A stretch of DNA of 64,000 nt from positions 10,688 to 74,687 of the forward strand of contig CAAEBN010000017.1 in the NCBI GenBank assembly GCA_900754075.1, given 5' to 3'. Under the pieces are notes generated by a model, which was not told the DNA's origin, did no database searches, and saw nothing but the letters and a program-made list of their open reading frames with translations. The stretch comes from an uncultured Collinsella sp. (GTDB lineage Bacteria > Actinomycetota > Coriobacteriia > Coriobacteriales > Coriobacteriaceae). A program made the translations under genes and the position numbers. Shown piece after piece: positions 2,296-56,657 of the stretch (positions are counted from its first letter, which is position 1; every line of letters begins with the position of its first letter).

Positions 2296-3321
2296 CTACT
2301 CCTGAACGGTCTCTTGGCAGACGACCTCGCGGATGGCGCGGATGCGGCGCATGGTGTCGTCGAACTGGTCGGGGGTGAGGGCCTGAGCACCGTCGGACCA
2401 GGCGTGGCTCGGGTCGTCGTGGACCTCGATCTCCAGACCGTTGGCGCCGCAGGCGGTCGCGGCGAGCGCCATGGGCTCAACATAGCGGGTGTAACCGGTG
2501 GCGTGGCTGGGGTCGGCGACGACGGGCAGGTGCGATAGGTGGTGCAGCACCGGCACGGCGTTGAGGTCGAAGGTGTTGCGGGTGCGGGTCTCGAAGGTGC
2601 GGATGCCGCGCTCGCACAGGATGACGTTGTCGTTGCCCTCGCTCATGATGTACTCGGCTGCCATAAGCAGCTCGTCGACGGTGCCGGACATGCCGCGCTT
2701 GAGCAGGATCGGGGTCTGCGTCTTGCCGACCTCCTTGAGCAGGGGGAAGTTCTGGGCGTTGCGAGCGCCAATCTGCATGACGTCGATCTTCTTGTTGAGG
2801 AAGACCTGCACGTCGCGCGGGTCCATGATCTCGGTGACGATCGGCATGTCGAGCTCGGCGGATGCCTCGCACAGTAGGTCCAGGCCGGCGGGACCCATGC
2901 CTTGGTAGGCGTACGGGGAGGTGCGGGGCTTGTAGGCGCCGCCGCGCAGCATCGTGGCGCCGGCGGCCTTCACACGGCGTGCGATGCGGATGAGGTTCTC
3001 GCCCTCGACGGAGCAGGGGCCGGCGATGACCTGGAACTGGTCGCCGCCGATCTTGACGCCGTGGCCGCAGTCGATGATGGAGTCCTCGGGGTGGAACTTG
3101 CGGTTGGCGCGCTTGAACGGCTCGGAGACGCGCTGCACGCGCTCGACGACGTCCATGGACTCGAGCAGGAACGGGTCGATCTTGGTCGTATCGCCCACCA
3201 GGCCGATGATGGTCTCGTTCTCGCCGCGCGAGACGTCGGTTTTGAGTCCCTTTTTCTCAATCCAGCTGACGATGTGGCTGACGGCCTCGTCGCTGGCGCT
3301 CTGCTTTAAAATCGCAATCAT
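2296..3321 (-). CDS. aroF: 3-deoxy-7-phosphoheptulonate (DAHP) synthase, type I-beta, with N-terminal ferredoxin-like/ACT regulatory domain
   Basis: Catalytic core shows KDO8P/DAH7PS (I-beta) similarity (…GPCSVEGENLIRIARRVKAAGATMLRGGAYKPRTSPY…); a ~70 aa N-terminal regulatory domain precedes it. The ORF-track start at 3369 is probably too far upstream: ATG 3321..3319 is preceded by AGGTGAGAGG. Confidence 0.8.
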   Translation of the reverse strand: MIAILKQSASDEAVSHIVSWIEKKGLKTDVSRGENETIIGLVGDTTKIDPFLLESMDVVERVQRVSEPFKRANRKFHPEDSIIDCGHGVKIGGDQFQVIAGPCSVEGENLIRIARRVKAAGATMLRGGAYKPRTSPYAYQGMGPAGLDLLCEASAELDMPIVTEIMDPRDVQVFLNKKIDVMQIGARNAQNFPLLKEVGKTQTPILLKRGMSGTVDELLMAAEYIMSEGNDNVILCERGIRTFETRTRNTFDLNAVPVLHHLSHLPVVADPSHATGYTRYVEPMALAATACGANGLEIEVHDDPSHAWSDGAQALTPDQFDDTMRRIRAIREVVCQETVQE

Positions 3322-6424: not shown

Positions 6425-6501
6425 CCCTAAGTTGCGGTGAAATAGGGACTGTTTAAGCGTTTTAACCTCCTATTCAGTCCCTATTTCACCGCAACTTAGG
6501 G
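6425..6501. repeat. 27-bp perfect inverted repeat (arms 6425-6451 and 6475-6501) with 23-nt loop
   Basis: CCCTAAGTTGCGGTGAAATAGGGACTG ... CAGTCCCTATTTCACCGCAACTTAGGG are exact reverse complements. Lies 12 nt after the ATPase stop, with no U-tract on either strand. Confidence 0.9.
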
Positions 6502-30652: not shown

Positions 30653-31528
30653 ATGGATTGCCCGGTCACCGCTCGTACCACCGTTATCGTTATCTCCGAC
30701 TCGCTCGGTGATACCGCTTGTGAGGTGGTGCTTGCGGCGTCCGGGCAATTTGATGAAGGGGCTTTTCGTCTCTTGCGCCTGCCCAAGGTGAACTCAGTGG
30801 AGCAGGTCAAGTCGTTTGTGGGTCCGCGTGTCGATGCGGACCATCGCGATATCGCCGTGTTCCATACCATCGTCGACCCGTCGCTTCGTGCTCGCGTGCT
30901 CGACTACTTGGGCATGCTGCACATTCGCTCGGTCGACCTGATCGGTCCGACCCTCGCCGTGCTGTCGTCGCTTATCGGTGTGCCGCCCAAGGGCGTCGCG
31001 GGCGTGATTCACAGGACCGATGACCGCTATTTCCATCGTATCGAGGCCATGGAGTATTTCGTTGAGCACGATGACGGGCGCGGCTGTGACGATCTGTCGG
31101 GGGCTGATATCGTGCTGCTGGGCGTATCCCGCACTTCTAAGACGCCGCTGTCGATGTATTTGGCCTATCAGGGCTATAAGGTCGCCAACGTTCCGTTGGC
31201 GCACGGTATGGAGCCACCCAAGTCGATTTACGAGGTCGATCCTATGCGTCTCTTCGGTCTGATTTCGACCGTCGATGTGATTTCCGAGATTCGCGATAGC
31301 CGCCTGGGCGACGACTATGCCCGTGCCGTTGCCGGCTCCTATGCCGAGCCCGAGAGTGTGCGCAGTGAGCTCGAGGAGGCTCGTGCCCTCATGAAACGTC
31401 TGGGTTGCTTTGTGGTGCGCACCGACGGCAAGGCGATCGAGGAGAGTGCCTCCGAGATCATCGCTCACCTCGAAGAGATTCAAGAGGCAAGAGCCCGCCG
31501 TGCCGCCCGCCGCGCTCAACAAAAGTAG
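30653..31528 (+). CDS. pyruvate, phosphate dikinase regulatory protein (bifunctional kinase/pyrophosphorylase, DUF299)
   Basis: N-terminal VISDSLGDTAC and P-loop GVSRTSKTPLSMYLA, characteristic of the PDRP/PpsR family. Directly upstream of ppdK. Confidence 0.85.
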   Translation: MDCPVTARTTVIVISDSLGDTACEVVLAASGQFDEGAFRLLRLPKVNSVEQVKSFVGPRVDADHRDIAVFHTIVDPSLRARVLDYLGMLHIRSVDLIGPTLAVLSSLIGVPPKGVAGVIHRTDDRYFHRIEAMEYFVEHDDGRGCDDLSGADIVLLGVSRTSKTPLSMYLAYQGYKVANVPLAHGMEPPKSIYEVDPMRLFGLISTVDVISEIRDSRLGDDYARAVAGSYAEPESVRSELEEARALMKRLGCFVVRTDGKAIEESASEIIAHLEEIQEARARRAARRAQQK

Positions 31529-31631
31529 CTAATTTGGGACGGGGCTTTTTTAACTGCCCCGTCGGCAATTGGCCAAAAAGCTCGTGGCCTCAGCCGGGGT
31601 AGCTAAAAAAGCCCCGTCCCAAATTAGCTAC
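31525..31631. repeat. 27-bp perfect inverted repeat (31525-31551 / 31605-31631) enclosing internal hairpins; bidirectional terminator-like
   Basis: GTAGCTAATTTGGGACGGGGCTTTTTT … AAAAAAGCCCCGTCCCAAATTAGCTAC are exact reverse complements. An internal 8-bp hairpin GACGGGGC-N10-GCCCCGTC sits at 31538-31563. The element spans the PDRP stop (31528). Confidence 0.85.
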
Positions 31632-31634
31632 TTA

Positions 31635-31652
31635 TGATAAAGCGCTTTATCA
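31635..31652. promoter_or_regulatory. 18-bp perfect palindrome TGATAAAGCGCTTTATCA (putative operator, LacI/cre-like core AAAGCGCTTT) upstream of ppdK
   Basis: Exact dyad symmetry, AT-rich in a 63% GC genome, ~220 nt upstream of the ppdK start. Followed by four TTTACC direct repeats (31667, 31713, 31723, 31744). Confidence 0.5.
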
Positions 31653-31871
31653 GTTTCTACCGCTTTTTACCTGCAATTATACTGTAGTGCTATCTTCATA
31701 AGCTAACCACCTTTACCTACCGTTTACCGCTAGTTTTAGCACGTTTACCAAACCGCGTATCCTCTGCTCAAGCCCGTTCAAAACCCGCCGTATAGTTCCC
31801 TCACGGCCCGCATCCGGCGGGCCAATTCGTTACCACGGTCGTGCGCGAGAGCGCATGGAAGGGGAAGTATC

Positions 31872-34622
31872 GTGAGCGATTGCAAGAGGGTTTACCGTTT
31901 TGGAACCGATGCCCAGGGCACTTGTGTCACCGAGGGCGACAAGTCCATGAACTTCGTGCTTGGCGGCAAAGGCGCTAACCTTGCCGAGATGAGCCGTATC
32001 GGCCTGCCGGTTCCCGGTGGCTTCACCATTACCTGCCAGACCTGCGTCGAGTACTCTGGTGCCGGCAACGTCTGGCCCGAAGGCGCGCTCGACGAGATCG
32101 TTGCTGCCGAGGCCGACCTCGAGGCTCGCTGCGGCAAGAAGCTCGGCGATGCCCGTGACCCGCTGCTCGTCTCGGTGCGCTCGGGTGCCCCGTTCTCCAT
32201 GCCCGGTATGATGGATACGGTCCTCAACTTGGGCCTCAATGACGATTCCGTCCAGGGCCTTATCGCCCAGACGCAGAACCCGCGCTTTGCCTGGGATAGC
32301 TATCGTCGCTTTATCCAGATGTTCTCTAACGTCGTCATGGGTGTCGATGCCGACTTGTTCGAAAACGCCCTGACCCAGGCCCGCCTGGTCGCCGGCGTTC
32401 GCATCGATTCCGAGCTTTCGTCCGAGGACCTGCAGGAGCTCGTCGAGACCTTTAAGGGCATTTTCTCTGAGAACGTCGAGGCCGCCCTGTACCCCGAGCT
32501 CGAGGTCGCGGAAGGCAAGCCCGTCTTTCCGCACGATCCGGAGCTCCAGCTGCGCCTTGCCATTCAGGCCGTCTTTGGTAGCTGGATGAACGAGCGTGCC
32601 TGCATCTACCGCAAGCAGCACGGCATTTCCGACGACCTTGGCACCGCCGTCAACGTCCAGGCTATGGCCTTTGGCAATAAGGGTGAGACCTCGGCGACCG
32701 GCGTCGCCTTTACGCGCAACCCGGCCGACGGCACCAAGGAGTTCTACGGCGACTTTCTGGTCAACGCTCAGGGCGAGGACGTCGTCGCCGGCATCCGTAA
32801 CACCGAGCCCATCGCCGACCTCAAGACCACCCCGGGCCTCGAGTCCGCAGGTGAGGAGCTTGAGCGTGTCTTCCTGACGCTTGAGGATCACTACCGCGAT
32901 ATGTGCGACATCGAGTTCACCATCGAGCAGGGCAAGCTCTGGATGCTCCAGACCCGCGTGGGCAAGCGTACCGCAACCGCCGCTCTGCGCATTGCTATTG
33001 AGATGGTCGAGGAAGGCCTCATTACCCGTGAGGAGGCCGTGAGCCGCATCGACCCCGCGCAGCTCGACCAGCTCCTGCACCCGCAGTTCGACTCCTCCAA
33101 GAAGTACGAGGCGCTCGCATGCGGCCTTAATGCCAGTCCCGGTGCCGCCGTGGGCGAGGTCGTGTTCTCGAGCGATGACGCCGTTGCGCGTTCTGCCGAG
33201 GGCCATAAGGTCATTCTGGTTCGCTGGGAGACCAACCCCGATGACCTGAAGGGCATGGTCGCCGCCGAGGGCATCCTGACCAGCCACGGTGGCAAGACGA
33301 GCCATGCCGCCGTTATCGCTCGCGGTATGGGCACGCCCTGCGTCTGCGGCGTCGAGCGCTTCCATATTGACGCCGCCGAGAAGGTCGTGCACATTGAGGG
33401 CAGCGATCGCGTGCTGCACGAGGGCGACATCATCTCCATCGACGGCACTCAGGGCATCGTCGTCGATGGCGCTGTCGACTTGGTCTCCGCTGAGCTCACC
33501 GGCGACCTGGACACCATCCTGTCCTGGGCCGACGAGATCCGCCTGGACGAGACCGACGGTCACGCCAACCACGTGCGCGTCAACGCCGATAACCCCGAGG
33601 ATGCCGAGCTCGCGCTTGAGTTTGGCGCCGAGTCCATCGGTCTGTGCCGCACCGAGCACATGTTCCTGGGCGATCGCAAGAACATTATCCAGAGCTTCAT
33701 CCTGTCCGACGACGAGGCCGTGAAGCAGCAGGCCCTGGCCGATCTGCTCAAGGTCCAGACTGAGGACTTCTTGGCGATGTTCAAGACCATGTCTGGTCGC
33801 GAGGTGGTCGTTCGCCTGCTCGATCCGCCGCTTCATGAGTTCTTGGATAATCCTCGAGAGCTCGAGGTCGCCATCACCAAGAAGGAGGCCGCTGGCGCCA
33901 GCGAGGAGGAGCTCGCCGCCTTGCGCACCCGCCTGCGCCGCATCGACGGCATGGTCGAGTCCAACCCGATGCTCGGCCTGCGCGGCGTGCGTCTGTCCGT
34001 CGTCTTCGGTGACCTGCCGCTCATGCAGGTCCGTGCCGTGGCAACGGCTGCCGCTCGCCTTATCAAGGAAGGCGTCGACCCGCGCCCCGAGATCATGGTT
34101 CCGCTCGTTTCCATCACGGCCGAGCATGTCCAGACCCGCGAGGTCATCGAGCGCGTGATCGCCGAGGTTTCCTCCGAGGAAGGCGTCGAGCTCAACATTC
34201 CCGTTGGCACGATGCTCGAGCTGCCGCGCGCCTGCATGGTCGCCGACGAGATCGCGCAGCACGCTGACTTCTTCTGCTTTGGCACCAACGACCTCACGCA
34301 GACGACGTTCGGTTTCTCGCGTGACGACGCCGAGGCCAAGTTCATCCCGCTGTACATGCACAAGAAGATCTTGAAGGATAACCCCTTCGAGACCATCGAC
34401 TCGGCGGTGCTGGAGCTCGTGCACATGGCCGTCGAGAAGGGTCGTGCCACCAACCCCAGCATGCACTTTGGCGTGTGCGGTGAGCACGGCGGCGACCCTA
34501 AGTCCATCAAGGCCCTGTTTAACGCGGCCGACGTGGACTATGTGTCCTGCTCGCCTTATCGCGTGCCCCTCGCACGCCTGGCTGCCGCCCAGGCCAAGCT
34601 CGAGGCCAAGCGTTCCGCCTAA
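31872..34622 (+). CDS. ppdK: pyruvate, phosphate dikinase
   Basis: 916 aa; N-terminal ATP-grasp (…LGGKGANLAEM…), central phospho-His domain (…GGKTSHAAVIARGMG…) and PEP-utilising C-terminus (…CGE…). GTG start after GAAGGGGAAG. Confidence 0.95.
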   Translation: MSDCKRVYRFGTDAQGTCVTEGDKSMNFVLGGKGANLAEMSRIGLPVPGGFTITCQTCVEYSGAGNVWPEGALDEIVAAEADLEARCGKKLGDARDPLLVSVRSGAPFSMPGMMDTVLNLGLNDDSVQGLIAQTQNPRFAWDSYRRFIQMFSNVVMGVDADLFENALTQARLVAGVRIDSELSSEDLQELVETFKGIFSENVEAALYPELEVAEGKPVFPHDPELQLRLAIQAVFGSWMNERACIYRKQHGISDDLGTAVNVQAMAFGNKGETSATGVAFTRNPADGTKEFYGDFLVNAQGEDVVAGIRNTEPIADLKTTPGLESAGEELERVFLTLEDHYRDMCDIEFTIEQGKLWMLQTRVGKRTATAALRIAIEMVEEGLITREEAVSRIDPAQLDQLLHPQFDSSKKYEALACGLNASPGAAVGEVVFSSDDAVARSAEGHKVILVRWETNPDDLKGMVAAEGILTSHGGKTSHAAVIARGMGTPCVCGVERFHIDAAEKVVHIEGSDRVLHEGDIISIDGTQGIVVDGAVDLVSAELTGDLDTILSWADEIRLDETDGHANHVRVNADNPEDAELALEFGAESIGLCRTEHMFLGDRKNIIQSFILSDDEAVKQQALADLLKVQTEDFLAMFKTMSGREVVVRLLDPPLHEFLDNPRELEVAITKKEAAGASEEELAALRTRLRRIDGMVESNPMLGLRGVRLSVVFGDLPLMQVRAVATAAARLIKEGVDPRPEIMVPLVSITAEHVQTREVIERVIAEVSSEEGVELNIPVGTMLELPRACMVADEIAQHADFFCFGTNDLTQTTFGFSRDDAEAKFIPLYMHKKILKDNPFETIDSAVLELVHMAVEKGRATNPSMHFGVCGEHGGDPKSIKALFNAADVDYVSCSPYRVPLARLAAAQAKLEAKRSA

Positions 34623-52796: not shown

Positions 52797-55445
52797 CTAG
52801 CAGACGGCGTAATCCTGAGGCTCACGGCCGTAGTAGGCGTCCAGGTAGAGCTCCTTGATCTCGCTCATGAGCGGGTAGCGCGGGTTAGCGCCGGTGCACT
52901 GGTCGTTGAATGCCTGCTCGGTCATCTCGTCGAGGGTGTCGAGGAAGTACTGCTCGTCAACACCGTAGTCGGCGATGGTCTTCTTGACGCCGATGAAGTC
53001 CTTGAGCTCCTCGAGCTTCGTGATGAAGTTCTCGAAGACCTCCTTGTCGTCCTTGCCCTCGATGCCGCAGTACTTGGCCATCTCGGCGTAGTTGTGCAGC
53101 GCGTTGGGGTAAGGATACTGGGAGAAGGTGCCCATCTTGACGGGAGCCTCGGCGGCGTTGTAGCGCATGACGCGGGTCAGGATGACGGCGTTTGCGAGAC
53201 CGTGGGGCAGGTGATGGAAAGCGCCGAGCTTGTGGGCCATGGAGTGGTTGAGGCCCAGGAAGGCGTTGGCGAAGGCCATACCGGCCATGCAGGAGGCGTT
53301 GTGCATCTCTTCGCGGGCATGCGGGTCCTTGGCACCGTTCGTGAAGCTGGAGGGCAGGTTCTCGAAGACGAGCTTGGCAGCACGCTCGGAGAGGCCCTTG
53401 GTGTAGTCGGAAGCCATGATGGAGACGTAGGACTCGATGGCGTGGGTCATGACGTCGATGCCGGAGGCAGCGGTCAGGCCGCGCGGGGCGGTCATGCAGT
53501 TGTCGGCGTCGACGATGGCCATGTTGGGGAGCAGCGCGTAGTCGGCGAGCGGCCACTTGATGCCGGTCTCCTTGTCGGTGATGATGGCGAACGGCGTGCA
53601 CTCGGAGCCGGTACCCGAAGAGGTCGGGACGGCGACGAAGTAGGCCTTCTTGCCCATCTCGGGGAAGGTGAAGATACGCTTGCGGATGTCCATGAAGTCC
53701 ATGGCCATGTCCTCAAACTTGCACTCGGGGTGCTCGTACATCATCCACATGATCTTGCCGGCGTCCATAGCGGAGCCACCGCCGACGGCGATGATGACGT
53801 CCGGCTCAAAGAGAGCCATCTGCTTGGCGCCGCGACGTGCGCACTGCAGCGACGGATCGGGCTCGACGTCGTAGAAGCAGTCGTGGGCGATGCCCATCTC
53901 GTCGAGCTTGGCCTCGATGGCGCGGGTGTTGCCATTCTTGAAGAGGAACTGGTCGGTGACGATGAAGGCGCGCTTCTTGCCCATGACGTTGCCCAGCTCG
54001 TCGAGGGCGACGGGCGTGGAACCCTTCTTGAAGTAGACCTTCTCGGGAGCGCGGAACCACAGCATGTTCTCACGGCGCTCGGCCACAGTCTTAACGTTGA
54101 TCAAGTGCTTCACCCCAACGTTCTCGGAGACGGAGTTGCCGCCCCAGGAGCCGCAGCCCAGGGTCAGAGACGGCTTCATGCCAAAGTTGTACAGGTCACC
54201 GATGCCGCCGTGCGAGGACGGGGTGTTGATGACGATACGGCAGGCCTTCATGACGTGCTCGAACAGGCTGATCTTCTCGGCCTGGGCGGGGTGCACGTAC
54301 AGAGAGGCGGTGTGGCCCGGGCCACCGGCGAGCACCAGGTGCTCGGCCTTGTCGACGGCCTCCTGGAAGTCCTTGGCGTGGTACATGGCCAGGACCGGGG
54401 AGAGCTTCTCGTGGGAGAACTCCTCCTTGGCGGGGTCGGTGGAGGTGACCTCGGCGATCAGGATCTTGGTCTTGGCGGGAACCTCGATGCCGGCGAGCTC
54501 GGCGATCTTGGCGGCAGCCATGCCGGGGATGCGGTGATCGAGAGCGCCGTTCTTGAACATGGCGGCACGCAGGGCCTCCATCTCGGCACCCTGCTTGACG
54601 AAGTAGCAGCCGCGCTTCTGGAACTCGGCCTTGACCTGGTCGTAGATGCTGTCGATGACGGTCACGGACTGCTCGGAAGCGCAGATCATGCCGTTGTCGA
54701 AGGTCTTGGAGTGGATGATGGAGTTGACGGCGAGCAGCACGTCGGCGGTGTCGTCGATGACGACCGGGGTGTTACCGGCGCCAACGCCCAGGGCGGGCTT
54801 GCCCGAGGAGTAGGCGGCCTTGACCATACCCGGGCCACCGGTGGCGAGGATGATGTCAACGTCGCGCATGACCATGTTGGTCAGCTCAATGGAGGGGACA
54901 TCGACCCAGCCGATGATGCCCTCGGGGGCGCCGGCCTTGACGGCGGCGTCAAGCACGAGCTTGGCGGCGGCGATGGTGCACTTGGCGGCAGCCGGGTGCG
55001 GGGAGATGATGATGGCGTTGCGGGTCTTCAGGCAGATCAGCGTCTTGAAGATCGCGGTGGAGGTGGGGTTGGTCGTCGGGATGACGGCGCCCACGATGCC
55101 GATGGGCTCGGCGATCTTGGTGATGCCGTAAGCCTCGTCGCGCTCCAGAACGCCACAGGTCTTGGTGTTCTTGTAAGCGTTGTAGATGTACTCTGCGGCG
55201 TAGTGGTTCTTGATGACCTTGTCCTCAAGAACGCCGCGGCCGGTCTCCTCGATGGCCATCTTCGCCAACGGGATACGAGCCTTGTTGGCGGCCATGGCGG
55301 CTTCATAGAAGATCTTGTCGACCTGCTCCTGCGTGTACGTAGCAAAAAGCGCCTGGGCCTCTCGCATCTGAGCGAGCTTGGCCTCAAGCGCCTCTACGTT
55401 GTCCACAATTGCGGGAGTAGTGTTTTCCGGTGACTTTTTCACCAT
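52797..55445 (-). CDS. adhE: bifunctional acetaldehyde-CoA/alcohol dehydrogenase
   Basis: 882 aa; N-terminal ALDH domain and C-terminal iron-containing ADH domain with the typical AdhE linker. Confidence 0.95.
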   Translation of the reverse strand: MVKKSPENTTPAIVDNVEALEAKLAQMREAQALFATYTQEQVDKIFYEAAMAANKARIPLAKMAIEETGRGVLEDKVIKNHYAAEYIYNAYKNTKTCGVLERDEAYGITKIAEPIGIVGAVIPTTNPTSTAIFKTLICLKTRNAIIISPHPAAAKCTIAAAKLVLDAAVKAGAPEGIIGWVDVPSIELTNMVMRDVDIILATGGPGMVKAAYSSGKPALGVGAGNTPVVIDDTADVLLAVNSIIHSKTFDNGMICASEQSVTVIDSIYDQVKAEFQKRGCYFVKQGAEMEALRAAMFKNGALDHRIPGMAAAKIAELAGIEVPAKTKILIAEVTSTDPAKEEFSHEKLSPVLAMYHAKDFQEAVDKAEHLVLAGGPGHTASLYVHPAQAEKISLFEHVMKACRIVINTPSSHGGIGDLYNFGMKPSLTLGCGSWGGNSVSENVGVKHLINVKTVAERRENMLWFRAPEKVYFKKGSTPVALDELGNVMGKKRAFIVTDQFLFKNGNTRAIEAKLDEMGIAHDCFYDVEPDPSLQCARRGAKQMALFEPDVIIAVGGGSAMDAGKIMWMMYEHPECKFEDMAMDFMDIRKRIFTFPEMGKKAYFVAVPTSSGTGSECTPFAIITDKETGIKWPLADYALLPNMAIVDADNCMTAPRGLTAASGIDVMTHAIESYVSIMASDYTKGLSERAAKLVFENLPSSFTNGAKDPHAREEMHNASCMAGMAFANAFLGLNHSMAHKLGAFHHLPHGLANAVILTRVMRYNAAEAPVKMGTFSQYPYPNALHNYAEMAKYCGIEGKDDKEVFENFITKLEELKDFIGVKKTIADYGVDEQYFLDTLDEMTEQAFNDQCTGANPRYPLMSEIKELYLDAYYGREPQDYAVC

Positions 55446-55587
55446 TTGTGTCTCCTTGCGATCGGAGATTTACCCTACGCCTTGCATGATAGCAAGAAAT
55501 TATTCGGCGAACGGTAAGATTCCCGTAAAAGGCACACTAAAACGCTTCAACTAAATGAACCGTTTCAACTAATGCTGCATTGCTCCG

Positions 55588-56625
55588 CTCATTGGGGACA
55601 GACTTACATGAGTGCATTTACTCATTTGGGACAGACATTGTTTTGCCATTTTGCCGCTCTGGGCTTGTTATTACCGCTCATCGGATATAAATAGGTCACA
55701 GGCTCAGCATTTCGCGTTGCTTCTCTCCTTTTAGGCGTTGCCTGTACAGTTTCGGAAGGAGAGATTATGCCCCGATGCGCCCGCGCCGTTTCGATCACCG
55801 GCTATTACCATGTCTTTGACCGCGGTAACTCCAAACAGATTATTTTTTGAAGATGACTCCGACCGCTATCGCTTCTTATCGGATATCTCGGAGAGGTTCG
55901 TGCGCTATGAAGTGGCGGTGTTGGCTTGGTGCCTTATGGACAACCACTTTCATTTGATGGTTGATGACCCATATGACAACCTTTCAAAGGCGATGCAGTG
56001 CGCATTGACGGCATATGCTAAGTATTTCAATGGAAAAACGGGGAGAACGGGGCATCTGTTTGACAATCGCTATTCGCGGGTCGCGGTTGAGTCGGACACG
56101 CAGGCAGTGCAGCTGCTCGATTATATCCATCTCAATCCCGTAAAAGGCGCGCTTGACTCACTCGAAGCGTACCGTTGGTCAAGCTACAAGGCATATCAGT
56201 TGGGCTATGATCCCTTTGACATCTGTGATGCGGCCCCTATGCTCGATATTGTCGGAGGCTCCCGTCGCTATTGCGAGCATCTCAAGGAAGTTGCCGAGCG
56301 CATCTGGTCGGTGGAGGTCCTTCCACGCCGGCGGATTCCCGATGAGGAGGCCTTTTCCGTTGCGCGCGAAGTCCTGCCGAGCATAGATCCTGCGCTGCTC
56401 AAGGCTCTGCCACGCCCCGAACGCGATGCCTGTCTTCTGAGGCTCAGGCGGGCGCATCTCACGGTCAAGCAAATTGCCCGTATCACCGGTATCGGCGCTA
56501 CAAGCGTGACCAAGGCCACCATAGGCTGGAATGAGGCAGCGTGAGGCAGGGGCGAACCGCTGCCGGCACGCGTTATGTCTGTCACAAATGCGTGAAAACA
56601 CTCATGTAAGTCTGTCCCCAATGAG
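55588..56625 (+). mobile_element. IS200/IS605-RAYT-like element: HuH-Y1 transposase gene flanked by 27-bp perfect terminal inverted repeats (REPtron-like)
   Basis: CTCATTGGGGACAGACTTACATGAGTG at 55588-55614 is the exact reverse complement of 56599-56625. Imperfect inner subterminal repeats at 55622-55641 and 56574-56593 (CATTTGGGACAGACAT / ATGTCTGTCACAAATG). Encloses the transposase ORF. Confidence 0.8.
55767..56544 (+). pseudogene. tnpA: IS200-like HuH tyrosine (Y1) transposase with C-terminal HTH, disrupted by +1 T in a T6 homopolymer
   Basis: ATG 55767 (SD GGAAGGAGAG) opens MPRCARAVSITGYYHVFDRGNSKQIIF, the canonical Y1 N-terminus, then hits TGA at 55848. The family-conserved continuation (EDDSDRY…HFHLMV…LDYIHLNPV…) is in the +1 frame (ORF-track 55738..56544). 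A T5 tract instead of T6 at 55843-55848 would restore a 259-aa ORF. Confidence 0.75.
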
Positions 56626-56628
56626 TGC

Positions 56629-56657
56629 AAAAAAGCGCCCTCCACATGAGAGGACGC
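56629..56657 (-). terminator. intrinsic terminator after rpmB (minus strand)
   Basis: On the - strand: GCGTCCTC-TCATGTG-GAGGGCGC followed by TTTTTT. Lies 4 nt from the IS right end. Confidence 0.7.

Follow-up and report, generated by a model that had tools for sequence, protein, structure and literature searches.

The spacer upstream of ppdK in a human-gut Collinsella contains, as judged by alignment with its relatives, real and evolutionarily conserved control sequences, namely an 18-bp palindrome (O1) and most of a group of TTTACC repeats. The DNA analysed is a stretch of 64,000 nucleotides from contig CAAEBN010000017.1 of an uncultured member of the C. aerofaciens complex (hereafter the window), in which the genes are ordered glyQ-glyS-PDRP-ppdK and a spacer of 343 bp separates the gene of PDRP, the PPDK regulatory protein, from ppdK. 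The elements in this spacer look like ordinary bacterial regulator-binding sites placed around two tandem predicted promoters (P1 and P2) and do not suggest a new kind of system.

The palindrome O1 and its conservation

A PPDK scan of species-representative genomes brought in about 45 species from the C. aerofaciens complex of Collinsella (PPDK identity 93-98%), and more divergent relatives were added in two sets with PDRP identities of 81-95% and 63-70%. The alignment comprises 34 distinct orthologous ppdK upstream sequences. The mean pairwise divergence at 4-fold sites is 0.19 within the main clade and 0.35-0.47 to L009, L010 and L012. Across the same 36 genomes, 10 of the 121 4-fold sites of ppdK (8%) are invariant, against 96 of 247 intergenic columns, which are clustered in discrete islands; the conservation of the spacer is therefore far above the neutral level.

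An earlier note on this DNA had described a perfect 18-bp palindrome, and TGATAAAGCGCTTTATCA is indeed an exact 9+9 dyad that occurs a single time in the window, even when three mismatches are allowed. A perfect palindrome alone is not significant, because 40% of Markov simulations held at least one such 18-mer (0.56 expected per 64 kb), and the decisive evidence is thus conservation rather than counts within the window. O1 was found at a fixed position in all 34 sequences, including every member of the clade. Its central CG (C31643/G31644) is invariant throughout, and 16 of the 18 positions carry at least 1.66 bits, with low values restricted to 31637 (0.67 bits) and 31645 (1.21 bits). The flanks stay below 1.2 bits, and conservation collapses right outside the 18 bp. 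The profile is also mirror-symmetric: TG is high, the third position low, TAAA maximal, G/T high and CG maximal, followed by the mirrored half, and the least conserved positions are +-7 and +2.

The commonest form of O1 in the relatives, TG[A/G]TAAAGCGATTTAGCA, is symmetric in seven of nine mirror pairs (14 of 18 bases). The perfect TGATAAAGCGCTTTATCA form is confined to the lineage of the window and L010, and another perfect variant, TGCTAAAGCGCTTTAGCA, is found in L051. On this distribution, the operator as conserved in the clade is imperfectly symmetric, and its perfect form is a variant of particular lineages. When O1 is considered as a hairpin, six of its pairs are the same throughout, and 27 of 32 sequences cannot form the pair at +-7. 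Because pairs are either invariant or, at +-7, broken, selection appears to act on the sequence of two symmetric half-sites and not on a stem, and by this pattern O1 bears the imprint of a regulator that binds DNA as a dimer. On the same grounds, there being no covariation, a hairpin of RNA or DNA was rejected.

It is extremely improbable that the palindrome has no regulatory role, being a chance occurrence, a weak glyQS-PDRP terminator hairpin or part of a mobile hairpin of the repetitive extragenic palindrome (REP) type. Such a reading can draw on the fair odds (P≈0.4) of meeting a perfect 18-mer palindrome in 64 kb, on the inverted repeat with 42-nt arms that adjoins O1, and on the small hairpin that O1 forms as single-stranded DNA. 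Against it, the sequence of O1 is kept in the 34 sequences, among them L020-type species that lack the REP-like element and have O1 about 15 nt after the PDRP stop codon, and the +-7 pair is broken in most species. An intrinsic terminator was also rejected, since the A/T-rich (in RNA, A/U-rich) stem has no T-run and no terminator was called at 31300-32000. The conservation pattern, as we see it, largely refutes the absence of a role.

The earlier note had also stressed that the region is AT-rich for this genome. The GC content is 0.37-0.40 at 31600-31750 and 0.61 in the whole window, which agrees with that description, but part of the AT-rich stretch adjoining the palindrome is a REP-like mobile hairpin (31520-31636) and not regulatory DNA. 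This inverted repeat, whose 42-nt arms are 93% complementary, folds with -50.5 kcal/mol as single-stranded DNA (z = -10.9) and abuts O1. It consists of two inverted copies of the REP-like unit GTAGCTAATTTGGGACGGGGCTTTTTTA, and the PDRP stop codon (31526-28) lies inside it. Among Collinsella species this spot may be occupied by the complete element, by one half of it or by another hairpin, or may be empty, and because of this variation in presence and form the element behaves like a mobile REPIN-type insertion. The core GCTMATTKGGGACRG is common to the hairpin and to the flanks of a putative transposase gene, with seven hits in the window against 0.75 expected. The open reading frame in question (55738-56544, plus strand) matches an IS200-like Y1 transposase (PF01797, 29 bits), and inverted GCTCATTGGGGACAGACTTACATGAGTG copies flank it (55585-56630). 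These data suggest a RAYT/REP-type system in this genome. A second long hairpin (6425-6501; 38-nt arms, 87% complementary) was observed just after a P-type ATPase gene, and the weak O1-like match TGTTTAAGCGTTTTAACC in its loop (6450-6467) is probably due to chance.

The spacer differs among more distant lineages. O1 is missing from the L015/L016 lineage (PDRP identity 69%). Distant Collinsella without O1 have other perfect or near-perfect palindromes between PDRP and ppdK, namely ATGGTATCGATACCAT in L018 (~2940-2960) and TGGTATCACCA and ACTGGTACTAAACCAGT in L014 (~2990-3080), which suggests that different regulators control ppdK in different lineages. In L048, the O1-like TGGGCAAACGATTTAGCA overlaps the end of the PDRP reading frame and has lost its symmetry, and it was not used for arguments of position. 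L010, whose PDRP is 85% identical, has the same perfect 18-mer as the window and, 28 bp downstream, a second O1-like site, AGGTAAAACGCTTTACTG, in the P1 spacer (L010 3117-3180 and upstream); it also has two extra long inverted repeats between PDRP and O1. In the Collinsella metagenome-assembled genome L044 (~1240-1520), PPDK is 95% identical from residue 5 on, and it is preceded by a different N-terminus and by unrelated, very AT-rich upstream DNA; chimerism of the contig or replacement of the promoter region may be the reason.

The repeat block, the two predicted promoters and the ppdK leader

The four TTTACC direct repeats reported in the earlier note are all present on the plus strand in the contexts that it quoted (31666-71, 31712-17, 31723-28 and 31744-49). 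With the local AT-rich composition, 3 of 2000 simulations produced four same-strand copies of one hexamer within 84 nt. The alignment divides them: three copies belong to a near-invariant array, and the first copy is, by comparison with the relatives, the -35-like hexamer of P1 and lies outside the array, because the relatives read TTGACC or CTGACC there. The spacing had been called irregular, which is correct for the start-to-start distances of the four copies (46, 11 and 21), but the last three copies and the hexamer TTTTAG between them are phased at 11, 11 and 10 bp.

The repeat units start at 31711, 31722, 31733 and 31743 (11, 11 and 10 nt apart) and consist of the core [C/G]TTTACC plus 4 nt, with near-invariant cores and more variable spacers. 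The degenerate unit TTTTAG (31734) reads ATTTACC or ATTTATC in some species. Within the block, CCGTTTACCG is invariant, and the distant L015/L016 lineage has the element in the form CCGTTTACGG. In 34 of 34 sequences, CCGTTTACCG and the TATAGT of P2 are 71 nt apart, and a stretch of 97 bp is free of indels. The same 71 nt separate CCGTTTACGG from a -10-like TATTAT in L015/L016, where the linker is unalignable, PDRP is 69% identical and O1 is missing. Since the distance is fixed though the linker varies, the array appears to be tied to P2 by DNA geometry, and since L015/L016 keep the CCGTTTAC element without O1, it appears to be independent of the palindrome. We read the block as a direct-repeat binding array separate from O1. 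Measured from the predicted P2 start, its hexamers would be centred at about -88, -77, -66 and -56 and share one helical face; the array as a whole spans -54 to -92 from that start and +9 to +48 relative to the predicted P1 start.

In its units the block has the form of a direct-repeat array of the PHO-box kind. Boxes of the PhoB/PhoP type are built from direct repeat units of 11 nt, each with 7 conserved and 4 variable nucleotides, and the core of Streptomyces coelicolor is GTTCACC (PMC4415409). L009 and L012 read GCTCACC at the last repeat unit. Because of this PHO-type unit structure and the GCTCACC of L009/L012, a winged-helix activator of P2 that binds direct repeats is favoured.

Regarding the promoters, none of the 34 sequences deviates from the P2 box CCGTATAGT, and a GC hairpin comes 8 nt after it; a comparable pair of -10-like box and GC hairpin occurs in C. 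ihumii, in another Collinsella lineage and in Coriobacterium glomerans. Both -10 regions have counterparts in the window: the type of P1 recurs as TGCTATCAT upstream of adhE and rpsB, and that of P2 resembles CGCTATAGT and CGCTATAGTAC (glyQ) and TGCTATAGTTC (rpmB). The main clade has 48.5-50.5 nt between the centre of O1 and the promoter anchor; in L009/L012 this distance is 39.5 nt, shorter by roughly one turn of the helix. A possible covarying dyad in the P1 spacer (CTGCAA..TTGCAG, CCAAT..ATTGG) was also considered; it is paired in a fixed register in 77% of cases with one two-sided pair change, and was not established.

Downstream of P2, the short ppdK leader (31803-31880) folds better than shuffled sequence (z = -2.5), and the more distant species retain the start-codon complementarity CACGAUA/UAUCGUG. 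A search against Rfam gave no credible match at 31400-32000 (E<=10; chance-level E = 0.8-6), and at the gathering threshold the whole window yielded one tRNA elsewhere. The features of the spacer and of the neighbouring genes are collected in Table 1.

Table 1. Coordinates of the predicted elements and of the genes discussed, numbered from the first nucleotide of the window.
Feature	Position	Strand	Description
O1	31635..31652	.	18-bp palindrome TGATAAAGCGCTTTATCA; clade consensus TGnTAAAkCGmTTTAnCA; centre 31643.5, about -59.5 from the predicted P1 start
P1 -35-like hexamer	31666..31671	+	TTTACC in the window alone, TTGACC/CTGACC in relatives; 19 nt upstream of TATCTT
P1 extended -10	31688..31696	+	TGCTATCTT (TGGTATCTT in relatives); near-invariant in the main clade; predicted start ~31703
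Conserved block	31697..31750	+	CATAAGcTAACCACCTTTACCTACCGTTTACCGCtaGTTTTAGCACGTTTACC; mostly invariant columns, no indels in 34 sequences
Inverted GcTAAC	31701-06		GGTAAC in relatives; precedes the hexamers
Block hexamers	31712-17, 31723-28, 31734-39, 31744-49	+	TTTACC, TTTACC, TTTTAG, TTTACC; phased 11/11/10 bp
Linker	31751..31787	+	Sequence variable, length fixed
P2 -10 region	31788..31796	+	CCGTATAGT, with TATAGT at 31791-96; no -35 match; predicted start ~A31803
5'-proximal hairpin	31805..31823	+	GGCCCGC-AUCCG-GCGGGCC; 98% of cells paired; changes nearly all one-sided, G.U-compatible on the plus strand
Leader structure at the ribosome site	31834..31874	+	Minimum free energy fold
Stem over the start codon	31834-39 with 31869-74	+	CACGGU with AUCGUG; spans and buries the GUG start, leaves the Shine-Dalgarno (SD) sequence unpaired
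Hairpin	31842-31855	+	UGCGC-GAGA-GCGCA; 94% paired; two pairs changed on both sides (L025 UGUGC/GCACA, L051 UGUGU/ACACA)
SD	31857-67	+	GGAAGGGGAAG; in loop
PDRP	30653-31528		PF03618 kinase/pyrophosphorylase; preceded by glyS
ppdK	31872-34622		Three-domain PPDK; GTG start at 31872
adhE	52797-55445	-	Upstream region 55446-55570

An RNA role for the TTTACC block, in which the 5' part of the P1 leader would pair with the ribosome-binding region and mask P1 but not P2 transcripts, has in our estimate a low probability. RNAalifold on the 34 sequences does pair the last repeat CACGUUUAC with the start-codon segment GUAUCGUG, and CCUCU with the AGGGG of the SD, and the downstream leader hairpins, one of which (31842-31855) shows compensatory changes, indicate that RNA structure matters here. 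On the other side, the long-range pairs are all invariant and thus give no covariation support, the full P1 leader folds no better than shuffled sequence (z = -0.5), and Rfam has no match. A variable linker of fixed length and the 71 nt to the -10 box describe a DNA geometry that an unpaired RNA linker would not need, and a phasing of 11 bp matches the helical repeat of DNA.

Candidate regulators and proposed mechanism

The earlier note had likened the palindrome to a catabolite-responsive element (cre) with a longer half-site and had proposed transcription-factor control of ppdK of the carbon-catabolite type. The core AAAGCGCTTT is cre-like and the half-site is longer, with TG/CA at +-9/+-8 instead of +-7/+-6. 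As a whole the site does not fit the CcpA consensus WTGNNARCGNWWWCAW, since TG and CA each lie 2 bp further out. Control by CcpA and HPr-Ser-P is a Firmicutes system. Transcription-factor control itself is supported by a conserved, symmetric, operator-like palindrome of LacI-like form rather than a true cre; that the control is of the carbon-catabolite type is a conjecture.

Ravcheev et al. (2014, PMC4052901) counted 1303 LacI-family motifs, of which 1251 are palindromes with an even length of 16-22 nt and 1173 carry CG at the centre; O1, with 18 nt and CG at the centre of its consensus, shares both properties. The same core is present in the motifs of AglR (tcAAAGCGCTTTga) and ThuR (atcnAAAnCGnTTTngat), and a LacI-family regulon predicted to include ppdK is that of GluR in Caulobacter (PMC4052901). 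From this form of the site, we give an even chance to the regulator of O1 belonging to the LacI family.

It is unlikely that O1 is bound by a regulator of another family, such as a CRP/FNR-type protein with a 5-6-5 site, TetR or GntR. The site of the relatives also fits GTA-N8-TAC and GGTAA-N6-TTACC, and its outer TG/CA at +-8/+-9, together with a separation of ~12 bp between half-site cores, would suit many helix-turn-helix dimers; the greater distance from the start codon than at typical LacI sites, and the lack of a LacI-family gene nearby (in the window and at the ppdK loci of the relatives), point the same way. However, conservation peaks at the centre of the site, where an invariant CG is flanked by AAA/TTT; many dimers, those of the CRP/FNR type among them, make no demand on the central 4-6 bp. 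Even palindromes built around an unvarying CG are the signature of the LacI family (1173/1303 regulators, PMC4052901).

A possible second target of a related regulator lies upstream of adhE. Two LacI-like 12-mers with central CG (55538-49 and 55556-67; TTRAAACGnTTCA, TTGAAGCGTTTTA) are placed there in inverted orientation 18 bp apart, are conserved in related Collinsella adhE loci, including lineages with 86-87% AdhE identity, and are followed by the extended -10 TGCTATCAT. The relaxed core TRAARCGYTTYA, common to O1 and the adhE 12-mers, matched the window five times where 0.78 matches were expected, and two of the matches fall in the adhE promoter; the pattern had, however, been defined post hoc. 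The adhE sites may thus be targets of a regulator related or identical to that of O1, and we treat them as a lead and not as evidence. Words shared by the ppdK and adhE upstream regions (e.g. TACCGTT) were rejected as a link; a TTTACC-type element shared with adhE is not claimed because 292 of 300 shuffles did equally well or better.

Based on the presence, conservation, symmetry and spacing of the elements, and on leader hairpins with some compensatory changes, we infer the two transcription starts, protein binding, the families of the regulators and the sign of regulation as follows. The spacer may be a composite control region in which two elements bind proteins independently of each other and two promoters stand in tandem, an arrangement to which we assign about as much probability as to all others together. 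O1 would serve as operator for a helix-turn-helix homodimer, most likely a LacI-family member, that binds just upstream of the P1 -35 element (centre at about -59) and modulates P1. Regulators placed in this way usually act as activators, from upstream of the polymerase, or through auxiliary operators, and we lean slightly to activation. Sites upstream of the -35 element go with activation in the case of CcpA at ackA, pta and ilvB (PMC3463425), and the sites of AraQ and MalR1 upstream of -35 were interpreted as probably activating (PMC6882875, PMC4746261). The TTTACC array would recruit a regulator that binds direct repeats, most likely a winged-helix protein of the OmpR/PhoB type. The protein bound there would activate P2, which has no -35 element, and could simultaneously obstruct P1 transcripts, given the position of the array downstream of the P1 start. 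A more elaborate version, in which a protein of the response-regulator type on the array blocks a long P1 transcript with masked start codon and activates the short P2 transcript while a LacI-type operator tunes P1, would be a two-input switch; we consider it decidedly improbable.

Several observations weigh against this scheme. O1 is situated 220-237 bp upstream of the GTG at 31872, which implies long leader(s) and is not the usual placement of a LacI site, and its conservation reaches +-8/+-9, beyond the ~7 bp per half-site contacted by LacI proteins. LacI operators often lie beside a cognate, autoregulated regulator gene; none was found in the 64-kb window or beside the ppdK of the relatives, and in fact no transcription-factor gene of any kind was found in the window or beside ppdK in the relatives examined, distant ones included. 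A position weight matrix of O1 was run on the window and on ~417 kb of Collinsella loci and detected no second site: the best other match scored 17.1, inside the range of shuffled sequences, one of which scored 23.3. The second O1-like site of L010, in the P1 spacer, suggests repression rather than activation. A strict scan of 31300-32000 for sigma-70 promoters and terminators had no hits, P1 being missed for its 19-nt spacer and its score and P2 for lacking a -35 element, and both starts are predictions. As for the array, it ends 42 nt before the P2 -10 element and ~54 bp upstream of the P2 start with no -35 overlap, unlike typical activating PHO boxes, and PHO-like GTTCACC/GTTTACC pairs were found upstream of ppdK in none of 38 other Actinomycetota and Firmicutes loci.

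Another explanation joins O1 and the array under one tetrameric or oligomerising regulator of the SorC/DeoR/CggR type, with half-sites TTTAnC[A], that bridges both elements and encloses P1; we consider it quite unlikely. The L009/L012 palindrome GGTAAATCGATTTACC consists of inverted TTTACC half-sites, and the right O1 arm of the main clade contains the 7-mer TTTAGCA, which returns at 31735-41, followed there by CGTTTACCA. There are also precedents: DeoR of Bacillus subtilis has an 18-bp palindrome at -60..-43 and a direct repeat of its 3' half near -35, and CggR acts through tandem repeats at +32..+77 to control glycolytic genes (PMC11229326). The two elements are nevertheless separable, as L015/L016 keep CCGTTTAC and the 71-nt spacing without O1, and the distance from O1 to the block varies by 1-10 bp while that from the block to P2 is rigid. 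Their registers also differ (CGmTTTA in O1, with one extra base, vs CGTTTA in the repeats), they lie 60-100 bp apart compared with the 39-45 bp of SorC operators, and in most species the arms of O1 read TTTAGC and not TTTACC. We thus retain two independent binding elements as the preferred interpretation.

The subject matters since Collinsella is an abundant human-gut genus of many species, and proteins identical to the PDRP and PPDK of the window were found on human-gut metagenome contigs. PPDK acts at the node between phosphoenolpyruvate and pyruvate, and the adjacent PDRP adds post-translational control. Literature searches returned nothing specific on the exact motif or on the regulation of ppdK in Collinsella, and no transcription-factor regulon or regulon reconstruction for Coriobacteriia. 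The operator, the repeat array and the two candidate promoters provide concrete probes (an 18-mer and a 40-mer) for the capture of regulators by DNA affinity, and the O1 motif can be used to scan complete Collinsella genomes. The expected yield is the description of a regulon of familiar type, with no new principle. Should the two-input switch be true, the synthesis of PPDK would be coupled to two signals, for example carbon state and phosphate/pyrophosphate state, in Coriobacteriia.

Comparison with known systems

The LacI operators with an AAAnCGnTTT core, those of AglR (nnntcAAAGCGCTTTgannn) and ThuR (natcnAAAnCGnTTTngatt), resemble O1 in being even palindromes of 18-20 nt with a central CG and an A3/T3 core (PMC4052901). 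O1 differs from them in its outer positions (TGnT...AnCA), in its location ~230 bp from the start codon and in its host, a member of the Coriobacteriia. The CcpA cre (WTGNNARCGNWWWCAW) shares the centre as well, since the inner 10 bp of O1, AAAGCGCTTT, are identical to those of strong cre boxes such as that of acoR (TGAAAGCGCTTTAT; PMC3463425). Furthermore, the activating cre sites of ackA, pta and ilvB are located upstream of the -35 element, and so is O1, likewise at a gene of central carbon metabolism (PMC3463425). In Bifidobacterium, AraQ and MalR1 (TGTGAGC><GCTCACA) are LacI-type regulators of central carbon metabolism in another gut actinobacterial lineage (PMC6882875, PMC4746261). Their sites and O1 are alike as palindromes with central CG upstream of the -35/-10 elements; the half-sites differ (GTGAGC vs TAAAGC), and regulon and binding were demonstrated for AraQ and MalR1, whereas O1 is a predicted site.

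The repeat array resembles PHO boxes and other OmpR/PhoB arrays, which also consist of 11-nt units on one strand, and its core [C/G]TTTACC is one base off the GTTCACC of S. coelicolor (PMC4415409). It departs from PHO boxes in its degenerate third unit (TTTTAG), and the link to phosphate is an analogy only. The composite operators of the SorC family (DeoR, CggR; PMC11229326) are similar to the whole region in joining an 18-bp palindrome, located ~50-60 bp before the start, to direct repeats of the 3' palindrome half. Those operators place the palindrome and the 3'-half repeat within 39-45 bp, an organization that the ppdK region does not share, as the hexamer near O1 (31666-71) reads TTTACC only in the window lineage.

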